A stretch of DNA of 62,965 bases, filler included, from Globobulimina sp. (lineage: Eukaryota): the NCBI GenBank assembly GCA_003354225.1. It is 41 parts of 41 records of this genome, joined end to end, with 100 filler letters (N's around TTAATTAATTAA, not from the genome) between each part and the next. Parts side by side here need not be neighbours in the genome. Positions count along the whole stretch, not along the records: positions 26,161 to 27,598 come from PIVH01016664.1; 40 more parts are not named here. One strand, written 5' to 3'. A program made the position numbers and the translations under genes. Below the pieces are notes generated by a model. It searched no databases, was not told the DNA's origin, and saw nothing but the letters and a program-made list of their open reading frames with translations. Within the stretch, counting starts at the first letter, position 1; each line of letters starts with the position of its first letter. This document shows positions 7,915 through 58,354 of this stretch, in pieces.

Positions 7915-9134
7915 TTATCTCAACTTTTTTGTATCAGTTTCTTTCTCATCCACAGCTCCTAAATCATTACTTACACCCACACCGCCACCTAAATTATCAC
8001 CCACGCCATCACCTACACCATCACCTACACCATCACCACCATCCACTACACCATCCACTACACCATCCACTACACCATCCACTACACCATCACCTACACC
8101 AACACCTACACCAACACCTACACCAACACCGCCACCTAAATTGTCACCCACTCCATCACTTACACCATCACCTACAGCTCCTCTGCCACCACCATCTCCT
8201 CTGCCACCTTCAACAATATTACAAGCAAACTCATTAAAATAAGCTAAGTCCACCTCCTCAATATCATCAATATCATCACTAATAATACTGACAGTTTCAT
8301 TATTATTTGTATTATTATTATTATCTTCAATATTATATATATTATCATCTTCATTGATATCATCTTCATTGATATCATTATTATTATTATCGATATCGAG
8401 ATCCGAATCATTGATATTATTATCATTATTATCCATATTTATATCATTATTTTCTTCATCAAATGCAAATAAATTAATTGTTTTATTATTTTCAATAACT
8501 GGTGCAATTAATTGTTGCTTTCTTTCATCTTCTTCTTTTTGTAATTTATTAACAATTTCAATTCTCGCATTTGCATACCATTTTTTATGAGATAATCCTA
8601 ATAAATGTTGAATAAACTTGACTGGTTGAAGCATTTGTGTTTTTTTCATTTTATTTCTCAATAATTGTTTAAATTTCGGCGACGTTGTTGAAAATAATGG
8701 ATTATATCCTTTTTGTTTATTTTTAATTTTAATCATTTTCATAATGTTTTGAGCGGAGTTTGAATGGGATGTACGTTGACGAATAATACTATTTTGAGAT
8801 GCATGCATTGCAGTAATATTTTGCTCATCATTTGCAATAAGATTTTGAGCGCTGTTGGTTGATTCCTGGTCTATTGGATGAGGGCTATAGTTGGTATACA
8901 CTGTTGGTGGCGTATTATTACTAATAAATTGTTGATTTGTTTGTGCGGATTGCGCAGTACCACGACTTTGATTATATTGCGGTACGTTGGCTGCAGTCTG
9001 CATCATATTATGCTGTGCAGTTTGCGCAGTACCATGACTTTGATTATATTGCGGTACGTTGGCTGCAGTCTGCATCATATTATGCTGTGCAGTTTGCGCA
9101 GTACCATGACTTTGATTATATTGCGGTACGTTGG
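7915..9134 (-). CDS. Low-complexity protein with 24-aa tandem repeats, N/D-rich tract and GV/GD repeats; 5'-partial
   Basis: 387-aa ORF; 72-bp repeats at ~8950-9134 and 6/12-bp repeats at ~7975-8200. Confidence 0.6.
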
Positions 9135-9499
9135 NNNNNNNNNNNNNNNNNNNNNNNNNNNNNNNNNNNNNNNNNNNNTTAATTAATTAANNNNNNNNNN
9201 NNNNNNNNNNNNNNNNNNNNNNNNNNNNNNNNNNTTATTGTTTCTGAGAAACGAAGGCAAACCTATATTATTTTTACCTTTATCAGTCACCAGAAACGGT
9301 TTGCTTACACCTTACCCCAATAAAAATCTGACGCTGAAGACCGGATGCTCTTTAATTTAATTCGAAAACAGTTAGCTGACTAGCTACGAAGTCATCACTC
9401 ATAGCTGAGAAACACTTGTCAAAATAAAATCAGTGCTTTTTTTTTATCAGATTGGATAATTGATTGTATATTTTGCCATCTATTGTATGGTATTTTATT

Positions 9500-24622: not shown

Positions 24623-25995
24623 ACCATATTTAATAGTTGCTCAATTTTATAAATTTTTATTTCTCTCATTTTAATTGACATGTCCTCAGTATCTATGTCA
24701 AAACCAATAAGATCCAAATAATCCATTGGACCCTCTCTCTTCGTTTCCTTTTCCACCAAACCCGCTTCTTTGATAAAGTCACAAAATTGCTTGAATATAT
24801 CATCAGCAATGGTCTGCGATGGAGGGAGAAATAACATAAAATCATCCACATAATTATTCACAATTACCTTCAACAATTGTTTGCATTCCATTTTAAGTTT
24901 TAATAGCGACTCAAAGAAATCCGACTGCATAAAAATCGAAAATTCCTCTCCCGATAACACCTCCTTCGCTTTGTAAATATTAAATGATAATAAACGCAAT
25001 CCATTGAATAATAAATTGTTTACAAACGGTAGGAGCGCCACCAAATTATTCTCCAATAACCACCTTTTTATACACAAACTATCCCATTTAAATAATAATC
25101 TATTTTCATATATTTCATTTCTATTTTTCTCATTCATTTTTTCATTCATTTTCTTATTAAACTTTCTATAAAAATATAACAGATTCCTTTTCTCAATCCC
25201 TTCATTTATATCATTTAATAAATCAAAACCATTAATTTTTATATTAAAATACCTACAAATTAATTGTCCGACGTCTTGGGTATGTTTTGAACCAGATCTG
25301 GTTCCCCAAAAATCATACAAATCCGCCACCAATTTCTCATCAAATTTATATATGCAATTTTTAGGCTCCGTTATTGCTAAATAAAACTGCCTAAAAGCAG
25401 TCGCCAAATCTGTTTTGGCCAATTTGAAGCCCGGACCCCATATTAAATACATAATATAACAGTATGCTGCAATATCTTTTAAATAAATTAACTTTATATT
25501 TGCTTTATGATCCGGTGTTAATTCATTTAATGATGGATAGGTTTTTGAACCCTTCGTTCCATCCCTAATTATTCTAAATTCATATATTTCCCCCGTAAAA
25601 GGATCCACATTCTTCTCTCTCGCAAATAATGGAATAATGCCATTCGGGCTTCCTAACCAACCCACTGCCTTACCAATATCCATATTATTTGTTAAATCCA
25701 TTGCTATCTCCATCCTACTCCTTCTATCCATTTCTTTTTCTGAATAGGTTTCTTGATTTAATTTTTTATTTTGCGGATTCTCTATTCCTATTTTCCAACC
25801 AAATTCTAAATTATTCTTCATAATAATACACATGAAACGGTATACAATCTCATCATTATCACAGCTCTCTATTAGGGGCAGTATAATTTCATGCCAATAC
25901 CATCTCCTTTTATATAGAATCGAAATCTTATATTTTGAATTTGTGTATGCCATTCTAAATAGTTCCAATACTATTTCTTCATTTGCTATATACAA
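24623..25995 (-). mobile_element. DIRS-like (tyrosine-recombinase retrotransposon) reverse transcriptase with large in-frame insertion; partial
   Basis: RIIRDG..SLNE, LAKTDLATAFRQ (motif A), FWGTRSGS (motif B), YVDDF (motif C), GL...K.EGP...LIGFDIDT..M.I, as in DIRS1-group RTs. Confidence 0.88.
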
Positions 25996-26160
25996 ATATA
26001 TATATTACCACTTTTTAATATTACTACTTTTTAATATATATAGATCCTATTTGCACCACANNNNNNNNNNNNNNNNNNNNNNNNNNNNNNNNNNNNNNNN
26101 NNNNTTAATTAATTAANNNNNNNNNNNNNNNNNNNNNNNNNNNNNNNNNNNNNNNNNNNN

Positions 26161-26918
26161 AGTCATTAAAGTTGTTATGATTTTAGTGGCTTTTCTATTT
26201 TGAATTAGTTCTAGTTTTAGTAAAGCTTTCATTTGACTCATTGCTGCAATTTTAGATTAAAAATGCATTTAATTGAGAGGTATTTGTCGGAGTATAAAGT
26301 TAATTACATACATATTATCAAGGAAGCAGCGGCCATAAATCCGACGATGACAGAATGAGATAACATATTTGCGAGCAAGCCGGCATTGACTAAGCCCAAA
26401 CAAAACTGGATCAAACCAACTTGGAAGCCCAACATTGCTGATAATGACACAAAGTGCATCGCATAATCATCGTCATGCAATTCTTGACCAATGCTACTGA
26501 GCTGAGATCGGATTGCTTCTCCAGACATTATCGATCTGTGATAAAAATAAAATTAAATTGTGTGAAAAATAGAATTAAAAGAATACGTAAACGTGATTGC
26601 AATGATTGACACTTGCAACTGCCCGGATGTACCAAATATGGAATAAATAATCGGTGCAAGCATTGCAACGTACAGTCCATGCACTTCATTTAGACCGGCC
26701 AGCGCAGCTAAAGCCATTGATTGCGGAATGGACATAATACCGACTGTCACTCCTGACAATAAATCCGGAGCCAATAAGTCTGCTTTGTACTTAGGTAACC
26801 AATATAAAATCGGGATGTGTATCTTCCAATCATCACAATCATTTTTGCGTGGTATAAGTTGAAATGTTGAGTGGTGCTTCATGCAAAGTAGCTTAACGAA
26901 ATATTCAGATATAGGCAA
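26161..26918 (-). CDS. SulP/SLC26 anion transporter, N-terminal exons
   Basis: PILYWLPKY, DLLSGVTVGIMSIPQSMALA.LAGL...GLY, IYSIFGTS, LSHSVIVGFMAAA; two short introns. Confidence 0.93.
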
Positions 26919-27131
26919 CCCCCCCTCGCCTCACATTTTTGATTATTCAAACAATTCACATTATTTTGACAGATACCAACTGCACATTGGACAAAAAGAT
27001 TTATTTAAGTTGTTTTTAATACAATAGACAGAGCCACACCACTTCACAGCAGTGTATAGATTTTAATGGAAAAAGGAAAATCAACCAATAATTTAGCCAA
27101 TAAATTAAATAATACAAAAAATGTATTTAAC

Positions 27132-27597
27132 AATATTTATTCCATGAACCCAAATGTGTATTTATTTGTGTGTATTTATACTATTTTTCATATGCTTGAT
27201 TAGAAAAAGAACAAAAGTGTTGGCTTAGTAGCTCAATATGTGGATAGAGCATATGTCTGCAGCTTTATGCTGTATCCTTGAAATATTTCGATATTTCAAC
27301 TCAACCCCAACTTAATTTAACAATGAAGCTTTTTAAACAACAATTAACAGCCTCCTGGTTCAATTTCTCTTCTTGTGAAATATGATAATAAAATTGAGTT
27401 TGAGTTAAATAATGCATATAAATGTGGGTTTAAATCCCACCTAAGCCATTAACCATAATTATAACAGCACAGTGGAAACTCCGCTTTTTTAATTAAAACC
27501 TTAAGGTTTTTGCATTTAAAAAAAAGAAAATCTCATAGTAAAATATAGTATAAATGCACACAAATAAATACACATTTGGGTTCATGGCATAAATATT
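27132..27597. mobile_element. Inverted-repeat-bounded (MITE/foldback-like) element containing a tRNA-like gene
   Basis: 27132-27184 matches the reverse complement of 27545-27597 at 51 of 53 positions; the right arm runs to the contig edge. Confidence 0.7.
27222..27448 (+). tRNA. tRNA-Cys(GCA)-like gene or pseudogene with ~150-nt intron (27263-27412)
   Basis: Acceptor GGCTTAG/CTAAGCC, D stem GCTC/GAGC, anticodon stem TATGT/GCATA, loop CT-GCA-G|intron|T, T arm GTGGG-TTTAAAT-CCCAC. Confidence 0.7.
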
Positions 27598-27698
27598 TNN
27601 NNNNNNNNNNNNNNNNNNNNNNNNNNNNNNNNNNNNNNNNNNTTAATTAATTAANNNNNNNNNNNNNNNNNNNNNNNNNNNNNNNNNNNNNNNNNNNN

Positions 27699-29136
27699 CG
27701 ATGGGCAATGACTAAAACAGTTCTTCCTCTCATCACATTATTCAATGCCTTTTGCACCAACTCTTCAGATTTCGCATCCAAAGAACTTGTGGCCTCATCC
27801 AAGAGCAATATTTGTGGATTTAACAATATCGCTCTCGCCAACGCAATCCGTTGCTTTTGACCTCCACTTAATCGCACTCCTCTTTCTCCACACAATGTAT
27901 CATATCCTTCCGGGAAATTCATCACAAAATGATGACAATTTGCCTTTTTTGCAGCAGATATAATTTCCTCTTCTGATATGTTCCTATATTCCAACTGGTT
28001 TTCATCACTCTTCTCTCTGTCAATGGATTTGCCAAATAATATATTATCCCGTATAGATCTGGCAAATAATATCGGTTCCTGGCTCACATAACCAATCTGC
28101 GAATGTAACAATGGCAAATTATATTGTTTTATATTGACGCCATCAATGTTTATTTCACCCAGACTGACATCGTAGAATCTCATTATGAGCGACACAATGG
28201 ATGACTTTCCATGGCCACTTTCACCGACCAACGCAGTCACACATCCGGGCCTAATCTCAAAGGATAACTTATTTAACACAATTTTGTCCATTCTCGAGGG
28301 GTATCGGAATGATATATCTTTTAATTCAACATTGCCTTTAATGTTTGCATCATTTCCCTCCTTCCTCTCCGCATTCATAATATTGTTATTTTGTATATGT
28401 AGCAGTAAAGTTGACTGTATTTTGGTTGCTTTATAGCTCTTGTTTTTATTCTGAGTGCTCTCTGTTAATGACATTGCCTGCAAGCCACCATTTGGTGAGA
28501 TCTTAGTGGTCCTATCCAACAAATTAAAAATGCGATCCCCAGCACCCAGAGCCTTCATGATAATGCTAAAGAAATTGACAAAGGAAACCAGCGAGAAAGC
28601 GATGGTTATTGTAATCAGTAAATATGAGGTCAGTGCGCCGGAAGAAATGTGGTTTTCTAGCACTTTATTCGCGCCATACCATAGCACCAAAGCCACATTG
28701 AAATATCCCAAACAAGTGATGAAGAAAATGAATCCGCCCAATGTCAGAGCCATACGTTTGCCCATTAAATATGTGGAATTGATGGCGATATGGTATAACC
28801 AGAATTGGTCCGATTCTTTGCTGAAAGACTTTACTGTTCGGATATTGGTAATGGATTCATTGGCAATCTCGGTGGCTTTGGCTAGAATGTCCTGATTGGT
28901 TTTGGATAAGTTGCGGTAATGTTTGCCATACAATTTGCCAGAGATTACAATGATGGGCACACTCGATATCATAACCAACGTCAAATCCCAACTGATAAAC
29001 CATAAATATGTGACACCTAAACAAGTATTCATGAGCGAGGAGATGGCGACGGCGATTTGTGAGGTCGCGGCTTGTTTCATTTGGGTCGTGTCTGAAGATA
29101 AACGATTTATCAGTTCTCCAGTTTTATTTACATCAA
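27699..29136 (-). CDS. ABC transporter subfamily B half-transporter (TAP/ABCB10-like), partial
   Basis: TMD, then Walker A GESGHGKS, Q-loop VSQEP, signature LSGGQKQR, Walker B LLLDEATS, H-loop VIAH. Confidence 0.95.
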
Positions 29137-38464: not shown

Positions 38465-39902
38465 GCATATACAGTATATTTACTCAAATATCTTCGCATA
38501 TACAGTATATTTGTTTGAAGATCTTCACGTCTACAGTTTATTTACTTGAAGATCTTCATATCTACAGTATATTTATTCGAAGATATTCATATTAACAGTA
38601 TATTTACTTGAAAAACTTGGTATACATAGTATATTTACTCAAAGATCTTCATATCTACAGTATACTTACTTGAATATCTACATATCTACAGTATATTTAC
38701 TTGAAGACCTTCATATCTATAGCATATTTGCTTGAAGATATACATATCTACAGTATACTTACTTGAAGATCTTCACATCAAATTTATATTTACTTGAAGA
38801 TCTTCATATCAATGTTATATTTACTTGAATATCTTCATATCTACAGCACATTTCTTGAAGATATACATATCTACAGTATATCTACTTGAAGACATTCATA
38901 TCTACGGCACATTTACTTGAAGATATTCATATCAACAGTATATTTACTTGAAGACCTTCATATCTACGGCGCATTTACTTAAAGATATTCATATCAACAG
39001 TATATTTACTTGAAGACCTTCATATCTACAGCACATTTGCTTGAAGATATACATATCTACAGTATATTTACTTGAAGATATTCATATTAACAGTCTATTT
39101 ACTTGAAAATCTTCATATCCATAGTATATTTACTTGAAGATCTTCATATCTACAACACATTTGCTTGAAGATATTCATATATACAGTATATTTACTTGAA
39201 GATGTTCATTTCAACAGTATATTTGCTTGAAGATCTTCATATCTACTGCACATTTGCTTGAAGATATTCATATCTACTCAAAGATATCCATATAAACAGT
39301 ATATTTACTTGAAAATCTTTATATCCGCAGCACATTTGCTTGAAGACATTCATATCTACAGTATATTTACTTGAAGATATTCATTTCAACAGTATATTTG
39401 CTTGAAGATCTTCATATCTACAGCACATTTGCTTGAAGATATTCATATCTACAGTATATTTACTTGAAGATATTCATATCAACAGTATATTTACTTGAAG
39501 ATCTACATATCTACAGTATATTTACTTGAAGACCTTCATATCTATAGCACATTTGCTTGAAGATATACATATCTACAGTATATCTACTTGAAGACCTTCA
39601 TATCTGCGGTACATTTACTTGAAGATATTCATATCAACAGTATATTTACTTGAAGACCTTCATTTCAACAGTATATTTGCTTGAATATCTTCATATCTAC
39701 AGCACATTTGCTTGAAGATATTCATATCTACAGTATATTTACTTGAAGATATACACATCTACAGTATATTTACTTGAAGATATTCATATCCATAGTATAT
39801 TTACTTGAAGATCTTCATATCTACAACACATTTGCTTGAAGATATTCATATATACAGTATATTTACTTGAAGATCTTCACATCTACAGCACATTTGCTTG
39901 AA
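38465..39902. repeat. 31-bp tandem satellite, about 46 copies, filling the contig
   Basis: Consensus ACAGTATATTTACTTGAAGATMTTCATATCT, period 31; variant ACAGCACATTTGCTTG interspersed. Confidence 0.97.
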
Positions 39903-46154: not shown

Positions 46155-46834
46155 TGCTTCAAATCATTGGATATTAATGTTAAATCAATGGAGGATTTTT
46201 TATTGTATGATCTATGTATATGGGTATAAGATGGATTGGTTATATTTAGTATTTGCATACCAAGGAATTCCAAACCGTCAACAAAATTATCGGATTCAGC
46301 AGTTGATCGATCGCTGCCCCATATTACATGTGGCACATTAAAATCGCCCGCAATTACATTTTTATCGACAGTCATTGGATAACTAAATAATTGATCAATA
46401 TTGGGATTCCTTGGACAATTATATAAAGAGTGAATACCAATGTTTTGATCGCCACTATGGAGGATTACACTGGAAATGTGGCAATTTCTTGTACGGTCAC
46501 TATGGTTATAATTCTGAGGGGATTTTATCGGAGTAACAAGCAGTGATTCTCTGTAAAGGATTGCTGTTTCAGTCCCTGTATAATGGACTTTATATTTTGG
46601 AAAGCGTTCAATAGGGAATTTAAGTGAATGTGTGCGATTATTTGAGTCTGTATAAGTTGTATTTGTTGGAGTTACTGCATATCGCAGCGTGGCACTCCAT
46701 TCCTGGAGGAGGAGGAAGTCAATTTGTTTAGCTATCATTATTTGATGAATTTTTTTACATTTATTTTCTTGTGACATCTTTGAGGGACTAATTATCCCAT
46801 TTACGTTATATTGTAATATATTATATTTAACCAT
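46155..46834 (-). mobile_element. Non-LTR retrotransposon ORF2, APE endonuclease domain, 3'-truncated
   Basis: ILQYNVNG, DFLLLQE, SLYN.P, IAGDFN..H..WGS, LN....T, SSIDLTL. Confidence 0.92.
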
Positions 46835-47261
46835 TTTCTATTTTGTATATGATTCGTTTCTGGGAGTAGTTTTTGAGATTTTTGTAGTGAATTTTCAGTT
46901 TTTTTCCCACACTGATAAAAGAGTCGAGGTGTAATTGAATTAAACAGCGTTGCCATAGCAACAATTTTATTATTGTGTATAAAAAGGAAATTAATTGAAT
47001 TAAAGTAGAGTATTCTATGGTATTTATCAGATCGCAATGAGATATATTCTCAAAATGCGAATCTGGGGCAATAGAATGGTCTCTGTCTTTTTTAATGTCA
47101 ATTACAAAAATAAAGGCAGTGCATAGATGGGAGTTAAATGGATAAATGGAATGGATGGTATTTGTATAAAATATAGAAAAATTAAGTGAAACTAAATAAT
47201 TATAATTACATAAATTACATAAGGAGACTTGTGTGAGGGCTAAAACCAACGTTCTAATCAT
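46827..47261 (-). CDS. Extra 144-aa ORF between the putative ORF1 and ORF2 of the LINE
   Basis: Start overlaps the upstream stop (ATGA) and its stop overlaps the ORF2 start (ATGGTTAA). Confidence 0.5.
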   Translation of the reverse strand: MIRTLVLALTQVSLCNLCNYNYLVSLNFSIFYTNTIHSIYPFNSHLCTAFIFVIDIKKDRDHSIAPDSHFENISHCDLINTIEYSTLIQLISFLYTIIKLLLWQRCLIQLHLDSFISVGKKLKIHYKNLKNYSQKRIIYKIENG

Positions 47262-56917: not shown

Positions 56918-58354
56918 TCTTAACCATATCATCATCATCAGCATAATATTTATTTGTGTTATTTATGGCATCAACAATGTCATGATTATCATCGACAATA
57001 TGCCCACCAGCTGTTACTGTGTTGCTTGCTTCATCATCAATGTCCACATTGCCTTCTTCCGTAAAACCACAATCCATTATCATATCCGGTAATATCTCTC
57101 CTGCTCTACCTCTCATATCATATCCTGGCCCAATCAACTGCACGTACTGATAATCAATGATATTATTTTCGTTTTTCATTTCCTGAAAACGTTTTTTATT
57201 TACATAAAAAGCCATAATAAGCACAATACAGCACACTAAAACAGAAGATACCACAATGAACGCATATTTATAGTAATTTTGCTTGACCTCAGTTTGTTGA
57301 ATGTCCTTTTCTGTGCTAAAAAATATGGTGTTGGTAGATAATACATTCGTTGTAGCTATAGGTCTCGCCGTTGGCTTTGGTGTTACATTTATTACAGGAG
57401 TTGGTTGTGATGGATTACTTGGATTCAATGAGGGAGAATTGCTTGGATTTGATGACGGGAAATAACTTGGATTTGATGATGGGAAATTACTGGGATTTGA
57501 CGATGGGAAATTACTGGGATTTGATGCTGGGAAATTACTTGGATTTGCTGATGGATAATTGCTTGGGTTTAGTGATGGATAATTAGATGGGTTTAATGAT
57601 GGATAATTAGATGGGTTTAATGATGGATAATTAGTTGGATAATATGTTGGTATTATAGCATATTGATAAGCTTCATTAGTTGAACCAGTTGGAAATCCTC
57701 CAAATACATAAAGTACATCATTAAGTAAAATGGAAGCCACTCTGTTTTTTTTATATAACATATTGGAACCCTGCGTAATGTCACCAGTTTCAGTATCAAT
57801 TGTATCAACTCGCTGGATTTGAGTGGCTCCGTCATATCCACCTAATAAATAAATTTTTGATTTATATGCAATTGATCGGAGAGCTTGTCTTCTGGTCAAT
57901 GTATTGCTCATTTCAGACCATGTCCCATCACAACAATTATTCGAAGCTAGTTCTAACTTAAGCTGGTACACTTTGTTAATATTCGGCCAGCCACCAATGA
58001 CATAGATTGCAGATTCAATGGTATTGCATGAATGCCACTCATTGTTTGTGGGTAAAAATGGACCAACTGACCATGTATCAGCTTCTGTGTCCAATATATA
58101 AGTCGCCTTTGAATACTGTGATGTTGGCGTGGTCGTAAATCCTCCAATCACAAATATGTCGGTATCAAAATGAGCCATACACCGACCCTGAAGCGCATAT
58201 CCAGGAAAACTGCTAAATGTATTCTCAACAGTCAGCGTGTTCAAATTATATGCAGTAACAATAGAACTCAAATGAGGTAACATGTATAATATATTATCGA
58301 TTTGCAGAGAGTTTTGAGATCGCTGGTGGCCAAATGATACCATATTAGTATGAT
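56918..58354 (-). CDS. Kelch-repeat type I membrane protein with PSxNPSN(Y/F) stalk, partial
   Basis: IFVIGG, IYVIGG, IYLLGG, LYVFGG Kelch blades; 24-bp tandem repeats at ~57415-57645; TM helix; acidic tail. Confidence 0.88.

Follow-up and report, generated by a model that had tools for sequence, protein, structure and literature searches.

Does a tRNA-Cys-like cloverleaf that closes only when 150 nucleotides are taken out of its anticodon loop represent a tRNA gene with a long intron, or has an interrupted tRNA gene become part of something else? The question is raised by positions 27222–27448 of a 62,965-nucleotide stretch of Globobulimina sp. DNA, referred to herein as the window, where a first-pass annotation had marked a tRNA-Cys-like cloverleaf split by a self-pairing intron.

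Genomic setting of the locus

The window consists of 41 unrelated pieces of 1437–1439 bases each, separated by spacers of 44 N, twelve letters, and a further 44 N. In a window of this kind, features that cross a spacer are artefacts and the real context of any finding is at most ∼1.4 kb. The locus is confined to the piece at 26161–27598, which gives it 1438 bases of true context. The pieces are AT-rich, with a G+C content of mostly 25–36% per 2-kb window (40.5% in one), and long open frames under the standard code are dense across them. On its minus strand, the piece that holds the locus encodes the N-terminus of a sulfate permease (26553–26930; Pfam PF00916, E 5e-14), whose likely start codon near 26883 lies ∼250 bases from the left end of the repeat described below. 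In the same piece, a contig of run X2 joins 26791 to 27025 and skips the 233 bases at 26792–27024, which have GT..AG ends on the plus strand and include the start of the minus-strand sulfate permease frame. This contig carries 3 differences over 61 bases on its left side, and the junction may reflect allelic variation, a paralogue, or a deletion.

Elsewhere in the window, 46157–46837 (−) encodes the endonuclease-reverse transcriptase domain of a non-LTR retrotransposon (Pfam PF14529 and PF03372), and a 460-aa open frame at 24625–26004 (−) gave no Pfam match. A neighbouring piece encodes an ABC transporter whose best relative is only 49% identical. The whole piece at 38470–39902 is a satellite built from ∼46 copies of a 31-base unit that match at roughly 80%, with higher-order periodicity at 62 and 93. 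Lastly, a long open frame at 7915–9186 (−) contains 72-base coding tandem repeats that are 97% alike, together with low-complexity Asn/Asp-rich and Gly/Val/Asp-rich stretches.

The split cloverleaf is of tRNA origin

Upon removal of 27263–27412, all four stems of a cloverleaf are formed, as had been proposed (Table 1). Altogether 21 of 21 pairs close, one of which is a GU pair and 12 of which are G-C pairs. The anticodon loop reads C32 T33 G34 C35 A36 G37 ahead of the 150-base insert and T38 behind it, placing the break after G37 (27262). Nine of 10 conserved nucleotides are found in the cloverleaf, in a set that includes G18G19, G53, T54, T55, C56, A58, and C61, and the sole miss is C56.

Table 1 Features of the split cloverleaf and the surrounding repeat, with variant sites among copies
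Feature	Position	Strand	Description	Variant sites
Left end module	27129–27188	+	left end of the repeat; 27132–27188 is the inverted-repeat arm	0 in 60 nt
Variable spacer	27189–27221	+	between module and cloverleaf	9 in 33 nt
tRNA-like 5′ half	27222–27262	+	acceptor 5′ strand, D arm, anticodon stem 5′ strand, loop C32–G37	2 in 41 nt: 27256 T>C, 5-nt D-loop deletion
Acceptor stem	27222–27228 / 27441–27447	+	7/7 Watson-Crick pairs	
D stem	27231–27234 / 27247–27250	+	4/4 paired	
Anticodon stem	27252–27256 / 27414–27418	+	5/5 paired, one T-G pair	
Anticodon GCA	27259–27261	+	read from sequence	
Insert at position 37/38	27263–27412	+	150 nt; folds and variant tally	17 in 150 nt
Anticodon-complementary hexamer	27269–27274	+	pairs with 27258–27263	
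Hairpin, 8 bp	27279–27298	+	constrained fold	
Long-range insert helix, two parts	27299–27304 / 27400–27405 and 27310–27318 / 27391–27399	+	folds	
T5 run	27330–27334	+	sequence	
B-box-like GGTTCAATTTC	27357–27367	+	sequence	
tRNA-like 3′ half	27413–27448	+	position 38, anticodon stem 3′ strand, 5-nt variable loop, T arm, acceptor 3′ strand, A73	0 in 36 nt
T stem	27424–27428 / 27436–27440	+	5/5 paired	
Copy-specific segment	27449–27540	+	T runs 27485–27490 and 27507–27511; AT-rich palindrome	
Inverted copy of end module	27541–27597	−	95% complementary; outer end abuts piece end 27598	

The warning that default scans may miss such a locus proved correct, since ARAGORN reported no tRNA here in a default run, nor with its intron option at default stringency. 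When introns of 1–400 nt were allowed, the locus was found only at a 90% threshold, where it was one of 8 matches in the 63-kb window. The long-intron scan that had been suggested as a check did return a match, but as Ala(tgc) with a 152-nt intron and not as Cys. Following in silico removal of 27263–27412, ARAGORN called tRNA-Cys(gca) at its default threshold. The alternative acceptor stem that ARAGORN draws has 8 bp and T27449 at its end, a nonstandard form.

The Rfam tRNA model RF00005, for which the gathering score of a whole tRNA is 29 bits, matched the two halves separately. The 5′ half gave a 3′ truncated match to model positions 1–36 (13.5 bits, E 0.84) and the 3′ half gave a 5′ truncated match to model positions 37–71 (18.8 bits, E 0.026). 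The boundary between these half-matches is at model positions 36/37, and no cut other than 37/38 fits the stems, in agreement with the earlier placement of the split at the canonical position. At gathering thresholds, Rfam gave 0 matches across the whole window, and in the unsplit region 26800–27900 a search with E values as high as 10 returned no tRNA, the 4 matches being weak and unrelated.

As a control for chance, 300 first-order Markov windows were scanned for fully paired split cloverleaves with an intron of 0–400 nt. This yielded 100 such cloverleaves (0.33 per simulated window), against two in the real window, so pairing alone is not significant. Every one of the 100 had at most 6 of the 10 conserved nucleotides, only 2 had at most one GU pair, and none had 12 G-C pairs. 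Because no simulated cloverleaf came near 9 of 10 conserved nucleotides, we conclude that the cloverleaf at 27222–27448 is truly tRNA-derived. The second fully paired split cloverleaf of the real window, at 57143–57235 (−), has a 22-base insert and lies inside a Kelch-like open frame. With 3 of 10 conserved nucleotides and 5 GU pairs it resembles the chance matches, and it was rejected as a tRNA.

The locus is one copy of a multi-copy repeat

Evidence on copy number came from contigs of one study (3 runs, at most 2 samples, possibly the window's own assembly data), in which summed depth was 50–108 across 27121–27456 versus 2–8 in the flanks and reached 98.9 in the bin 27121–27168. Fifty-six contigs of run X1 were aligned, of which 37 were under 99% alike and 5 fitted two places. 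The repeat starts at ∼27129, 92 nt before the cloverleaf, where the depth stops, and the upstream flank of another copy matches the flank here at 7 of 30 positions by eye, indicating that the two are unrelated. At the other side, other copies can be aligned as far as 27448/27449, no more than one base from the 3′ end of the cloverleaf. Past 27448 we found two types of continuation, which are alike at 17 of 28 positions mutually and at 7 of 30 versus this copy (by eye). An A-rich stretch follows in two of three other copies, and this copy is without a clear tail or flanking direct repeat.

Across the bins 27457–27552 the depth is 3.9, a single-copy level, and in the bin 27553–27598 it is back up to 25.8. 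Since one contig bridges 27422–27587 without differences, this local arrangement is real. Another contig joins the first 20 nt of the left end module directly to 27340 and looks like an internally deleted copy. Comparison of the element with all 41 pieces by blastn gave no further copy. Positions 27129–27448, including ∼92 nt upstream of the cloverleaf, are a multi-copy repeat with many diverged copies, and in this context the original reading of one gene with a long intron becomes less likely.

An end module recurs in inverted orientation

The repeat begins with a module that recurs in inverted orientation downstream (Table 1). The left module lies 33 nt upstream of the cloverleaf, the inverted arm begins 92 nt downstream of it, and the two 57-nt arms are 352 nt apart. 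As DNA, the inverted repeat folds with a z of −10.45, and 0 of 100 shuffles fold as well. The piece ends one base past the right arm, as would fit an assembly that broke at the outer border of a repeat. An AT-rich palindrome with T6 and T5 runs occupies 27485–27523, between the cloverleaf and the right module, and is laid out as a hairpin with T runs behind it.

An exact scan of public metagenome contigs for the core of the end module gave 0 matches. We also searched with a 24-nt T-arm/acceptor motif in which the two deviant T-loop bases were degenerate, and obtained 0 prokaryote genome loci, 19 metagenome loci, and 6 viral loci. The motif lay within a called tRNA at 23 of these 25 loci, namely Leu(taa) at 18, Leu(caa) at 1, and Tyr at 4, with Cys at none; of the other two, one was cut by a contig start and one had no tRNA call. 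All 25 were rejected as relatives, as their likeness is confined to the acceptor and T arm and the genes stand in tRNA clusters. These loci have a canonical T-loop, and the dense tRNA clusters of the metagenome and viral contigs in which they lie are probably phage tRNA islands.

Variation is uneven along the repeat

In a tally drawn from short contigs that break at variants, with sites near contig ends unlisted, the exon-like parts carry 2 variant sites in 77 nt versus 26 in 183 nt for the insert and spacer (Fisher p 0.004). This unevenness could mean selection on the tRNA-like parts; it is the strongest sign of constraint on them and counts against the reading that we prefer below. It could equally arise from selection on master copies or from short-contig bias. 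Many of the variants mark subfamilies because their depth is high, and subfamilies reflect selection on source copies, not on every copy.

Pairing is preserved by two of the differences, T>C at 27256 (anticodon stem) and G>A at 27396 (insert helix). Each is a transition on one side of its pair, which is a wobble pair in this copy and a Watson-Crick pair in others, as plain decay of one copy would give. Covariation across copies had been put forward as a means of checking the locus, and no compensatory change was seen among the aligned contigs.

Structure of the 150-nt insert

When the fold was constrained to the cloverleaf, T33 through the first insert base paired with the hexamer near the start of the insert, and so the predicted pairing of the insert's GCTGTA with the anticodon loop does form. 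This constrained fold lies only 2.2 kcal/mol above the free minimum and leaves the 3′ splice site single-stranded. In the free fold, the D and anticodon arms give way to a hairpin (27243–27254 / 27266–27277). Taken as a whole, the 227 bases fold more favorably than 200 of 200 shuffles (z −4.24); for the insert alone z is −1.47, and 14 of 200 shuffles fold as well. Of the earlier description of a self-pairing intron, the long-range helix is retained, as it forms in the folds, but the insert is no more structured than its shuffles. An inner "TA-flanked" hairpin element at ∼27294–27410 is possible, and the fold statistics of the insert give it no support.

Enzymes that splice tRNA use an anticodon-intron pair or bulge-helix-bulge features at the 3′ site. 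At the 3′ splice site of this insert the anticodon-intron pair is absent, with C32 opposite T27410 (intron position −3) and unpaired in the constrained fold. No bulge-helix-bulge can be drawn at the splice sites either, 1 of 4 pairs being possible in the central helix.

Reading the borders of the insert, we found no target-site duplication, that is, no duplicated bases common to both borders. A fresh transposon insertion was rejected for this reason. A box C/D small RNA within the insert was likewise rejected, as no D box (CTGA) was found by eye.

Departures from a functional tRNA-Cys

The four features that the first-pass annotation had itself raised against function, in the T-loop, the discriminator, the D-loop, and the insert, are all present in the sequence. 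C56 is nearly universal in tRNAs and is part of the B box; the T-loop here reads TTTAAAT, with T56 and A57 where C56 is expected. The discriminator base at 27448 is A73, and U73 is the cysteine identity element of tRNA-Cys. The D-loop has 12 nt, and one high-depth variant has lost 5 nt of it, the GG included. The T5 run within the insert is a T4 run in 4 contigs. Past the 3′ end of the cloverleaf, the first T run lies at +37 nt and the next at +59, and in three other copies no T run was found within 28–30 nt downstream of that end. No variants at T56/A57 or A73 are listed among the aligned contigs. From these features we infer that the copies probably no longer make a cysteine tRNA.

Discussion

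Taken together, these data lead us to favor, as a reading with somewhat better than even prospects, that 27129–27448 is one copy of a dispersed repeat of ∼320 bases that carries a tRNA-Cys-derived gene, interrupted before the family spread, and is not a working tRNA-Cys. The founder would have been a real tRNA-Cys(GCA) gene, and the pairing of the anticodon with the first part of the insert, as in tRNA introns, makes it probable that an intron was already in place. Together with ∼92 nt of upstream sequence, the founder may then have given rise to some ten to a few tens of copies. The tRNA-like part may persist as a structural module or as an internal RNA polymerase III promoter module. The 57–60-nt end module, the best conserved part, marks the end of the unit and may be recognised by a transposase or other mobilising machinery.

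Such mobility is inferred, and the element behind it may be of an inverted-repeat type or a retroposon. The non-LTR endonuclease-reverse transcriptase domain counts in favor of the dispersed repeat, as it places retrotransposon machinery in the genome. A MITE-like element is suggested by the inverted ends and by the copy that may be internally deleted. Against a simple MITE stand the inner right part, which is single-copy, and the abrupt end of similarity at the tRNA 3′ end; for a SINE, a clear tail or flanking duplication is missing. With 27457–27552 at single-copy depth, the repeated unit is not simply an element that runs from one arm to the other. The stop of similarity at the tRNA-like 3′ end would be expected of gene copies and not of transposons, and to that extent goes against the reading that we prefer.

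A rather unlikely alternative is that the copies are a family of functional genes for a tRNA or a tRNA-like RNA, interrupted at 37/38 by a 150-nt intron. The end module would then be a conserved upstream element, and the intron would be removed by the tRNA splicing endonuclease, which measures mainly from the mature body. Such genes would account for the nine conserved nucleotides and the single GU pair, for the break at the canonical position, and for the end of similarity among copies at the discriminator base. They would also account for the anticodon-intron helix and single-stranded 3′ splice site of the constrained fold, which is only 2.2 kcal/mol above the free one, and for the lower variation of the exon-like parts and upstream module relative to the insert and spacer (p 0.004 for the exon-like parts). 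Long structured introns do exist, as in the 113-nt Drosophila case (PMC4536317). The same genes, however, would have to work with T56/A57, for which the aligned contigs list no variants, with A73 in place of U73, with a T5 or T4 run within the insert, and with neither an anticodon-intron pair nor a bulge-helix-bulge. There is no near T run 3′ of three other copies and the first here is at +37, one high-depth variant is without the D-loop GG, and 92 nt of 5′ flank common to the copies is unusual for dispersed tRNA genes. In a bolder form, which we judge unlikely, the sequence patterns could be taken to mean that polymerase III transcribes the copies as working genes whose product is a tRNA or a tRNA-shaped RNA. 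The 150-nt structured insert in the anticodon loop would then be spliced without the usual anticodon-intron pair, or else kept, with the cloverleaf as the scaffold of a new small RNA, the 57-nt upstream module would be an external promoter or a mobility signal, and the low exon-like variation would reflect purifying selection. Were the long-intron reading true, eukaryotic tRNA introns would be known to reach greater lengths, and the requirement for an anticodon-intron pair would be called into question in a protist lineage that has been little sampled.

It is improbable, in our view, that the tRNA gene was instead a landing site, with the 57-nt modules being ends of mobile elements inserted at set distances on either side, so that the repeat signal would be that of an element plus a multi-copy gene. 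In Dictyostelium, retroelements targeted to tRNA genes insert at set distances upstream or downstream of them. The positions of the module and its inverted copy, 33 nt upstream and 92 nt downstream of the cloverleaf, would suit this arrangement, as would a module that is invariant among copies next to a spacer that is their most variable part, and the window does encode a non-LTR endonuclease-reverse transcriptase domain. The spacer is nevertheless homologous among copies at roughly 80–90% likeness, so module and cloverleaf spread as one unit. Moreover, the repeat depth stops at 27129, and hence no larger element continues outward. That the cloverleaf formed by chance, or is a lone tRNA pseudogene in decay that a single recent transposon insertion broke up, we regard as very improbable. 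Fully paired split cloverleaves do arise at 0.33 per simulated window, and the insert has an imperfect internal inverted repeat. Yet both halves match the Rfam tRNA model, no simulated cloverleaf has nearly as many conserved nucleotides as the 9 of 10 found here, and the 37/38 borders are without a target-site duplication. The insert is also found in other copies, and it therefore predates the spread of the family.

If the locus is a tRNA relic borne by a dispersed repeat, as we prefer, its value is mainly for annotation, since a complete cloverleaf would be hidden from standard finders by a long insert. Matches to split cloverleaves would then need a check of copy number before a long-intron gene is called. 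To the known tRNA-derived repeats it would add an architecture in which a closed cloverleaf with an insert at the intron position is combined with an end module that also occurs inverted.

Comparison with known systems

Among the papers listed by literature searches, none described a MITE that contains a whole split tRNA cloverleaf. Listings and abstracts likewise gave no matching case for a transposon in a tRNA anticodon loop, a tRNA-like MITE, or long protist tRNA introns.

The locus shares with canonical nuclear tRNA introns, those handled by Sen/TSEN, the break at 37/38, the pairing of the insert start with the anticodon, and, in the constrained fold, a single-stranded 3′ border. It differs in length, as the 150-nt insert exceeds the range of 6–133 nt quoted from PMC4090602 for eukaryotic tRNA introns at the canonical position as of 2014; in Ostreococcus tauri, introns of ∼64 nt are already termed unusually long in the passage quoted from PMC13578239. 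It differs further in having no 32/−3 pair or bulge-helix-bulge, a T5 run inside, T56, and A73. The 113-nt intron of Drosophila tRNA:Tyr gives rise to a stable circular RNA, tric31905, and TSEN recognises its bulge-helix-bulge (PMC4536317). Both that intron and the present insert are long, lie in the anticodon loop, and have internal helices that bring their ends near. In contrast to the Drosophila case, no bulge-helix-bulge can be drawn for this insert, and its fold is not better than those of shuffles.

Like tRNA-derived SINEs, the repeat is dispersed in many copies, has a tRNA-derived part with A-box and B-box-like motifs, and occurs in a genome that encodes non-LTR retrotransposon domains. 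Unlike them, it has ∼92 nt of non-tRNA-like sequence before the tRNA-like part and so no tRNA head at its 5′ end, and its cloverleaf closes fully across a 150-nt insert with the 3′ acceptor strand kept. It also has an inverted copy of the end module downstream, and no clear A-rich tail or flanking duplication is seen at this copy. With MITEs it shares inverted ends of 57 nt, an AT-rich unit of ∼466 bp without an ORF, and ends that are present in many copies and conserved more than any other part, whereas the single-copy depth of the inner right part (27457–27552) means that the whole unit is not repeated.

Genes for tRNA also occur in short repeat units, among them Arabidopsis tRNA-Cys clusters with units of 0.4 kb and the tRNA arrays of Entamoeba (PMC10701932 and PMC2652664). 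As at the present locus, tRNA genes, tRNA-Cys-GCA included, are copied there along with a few hundred bases of flanking sequence. The units described in those two sources are, however, tandem and contain intact genes, whereas here a single copy lies beside a sulfate permease gene and carries a defective T-loop and a long insert.
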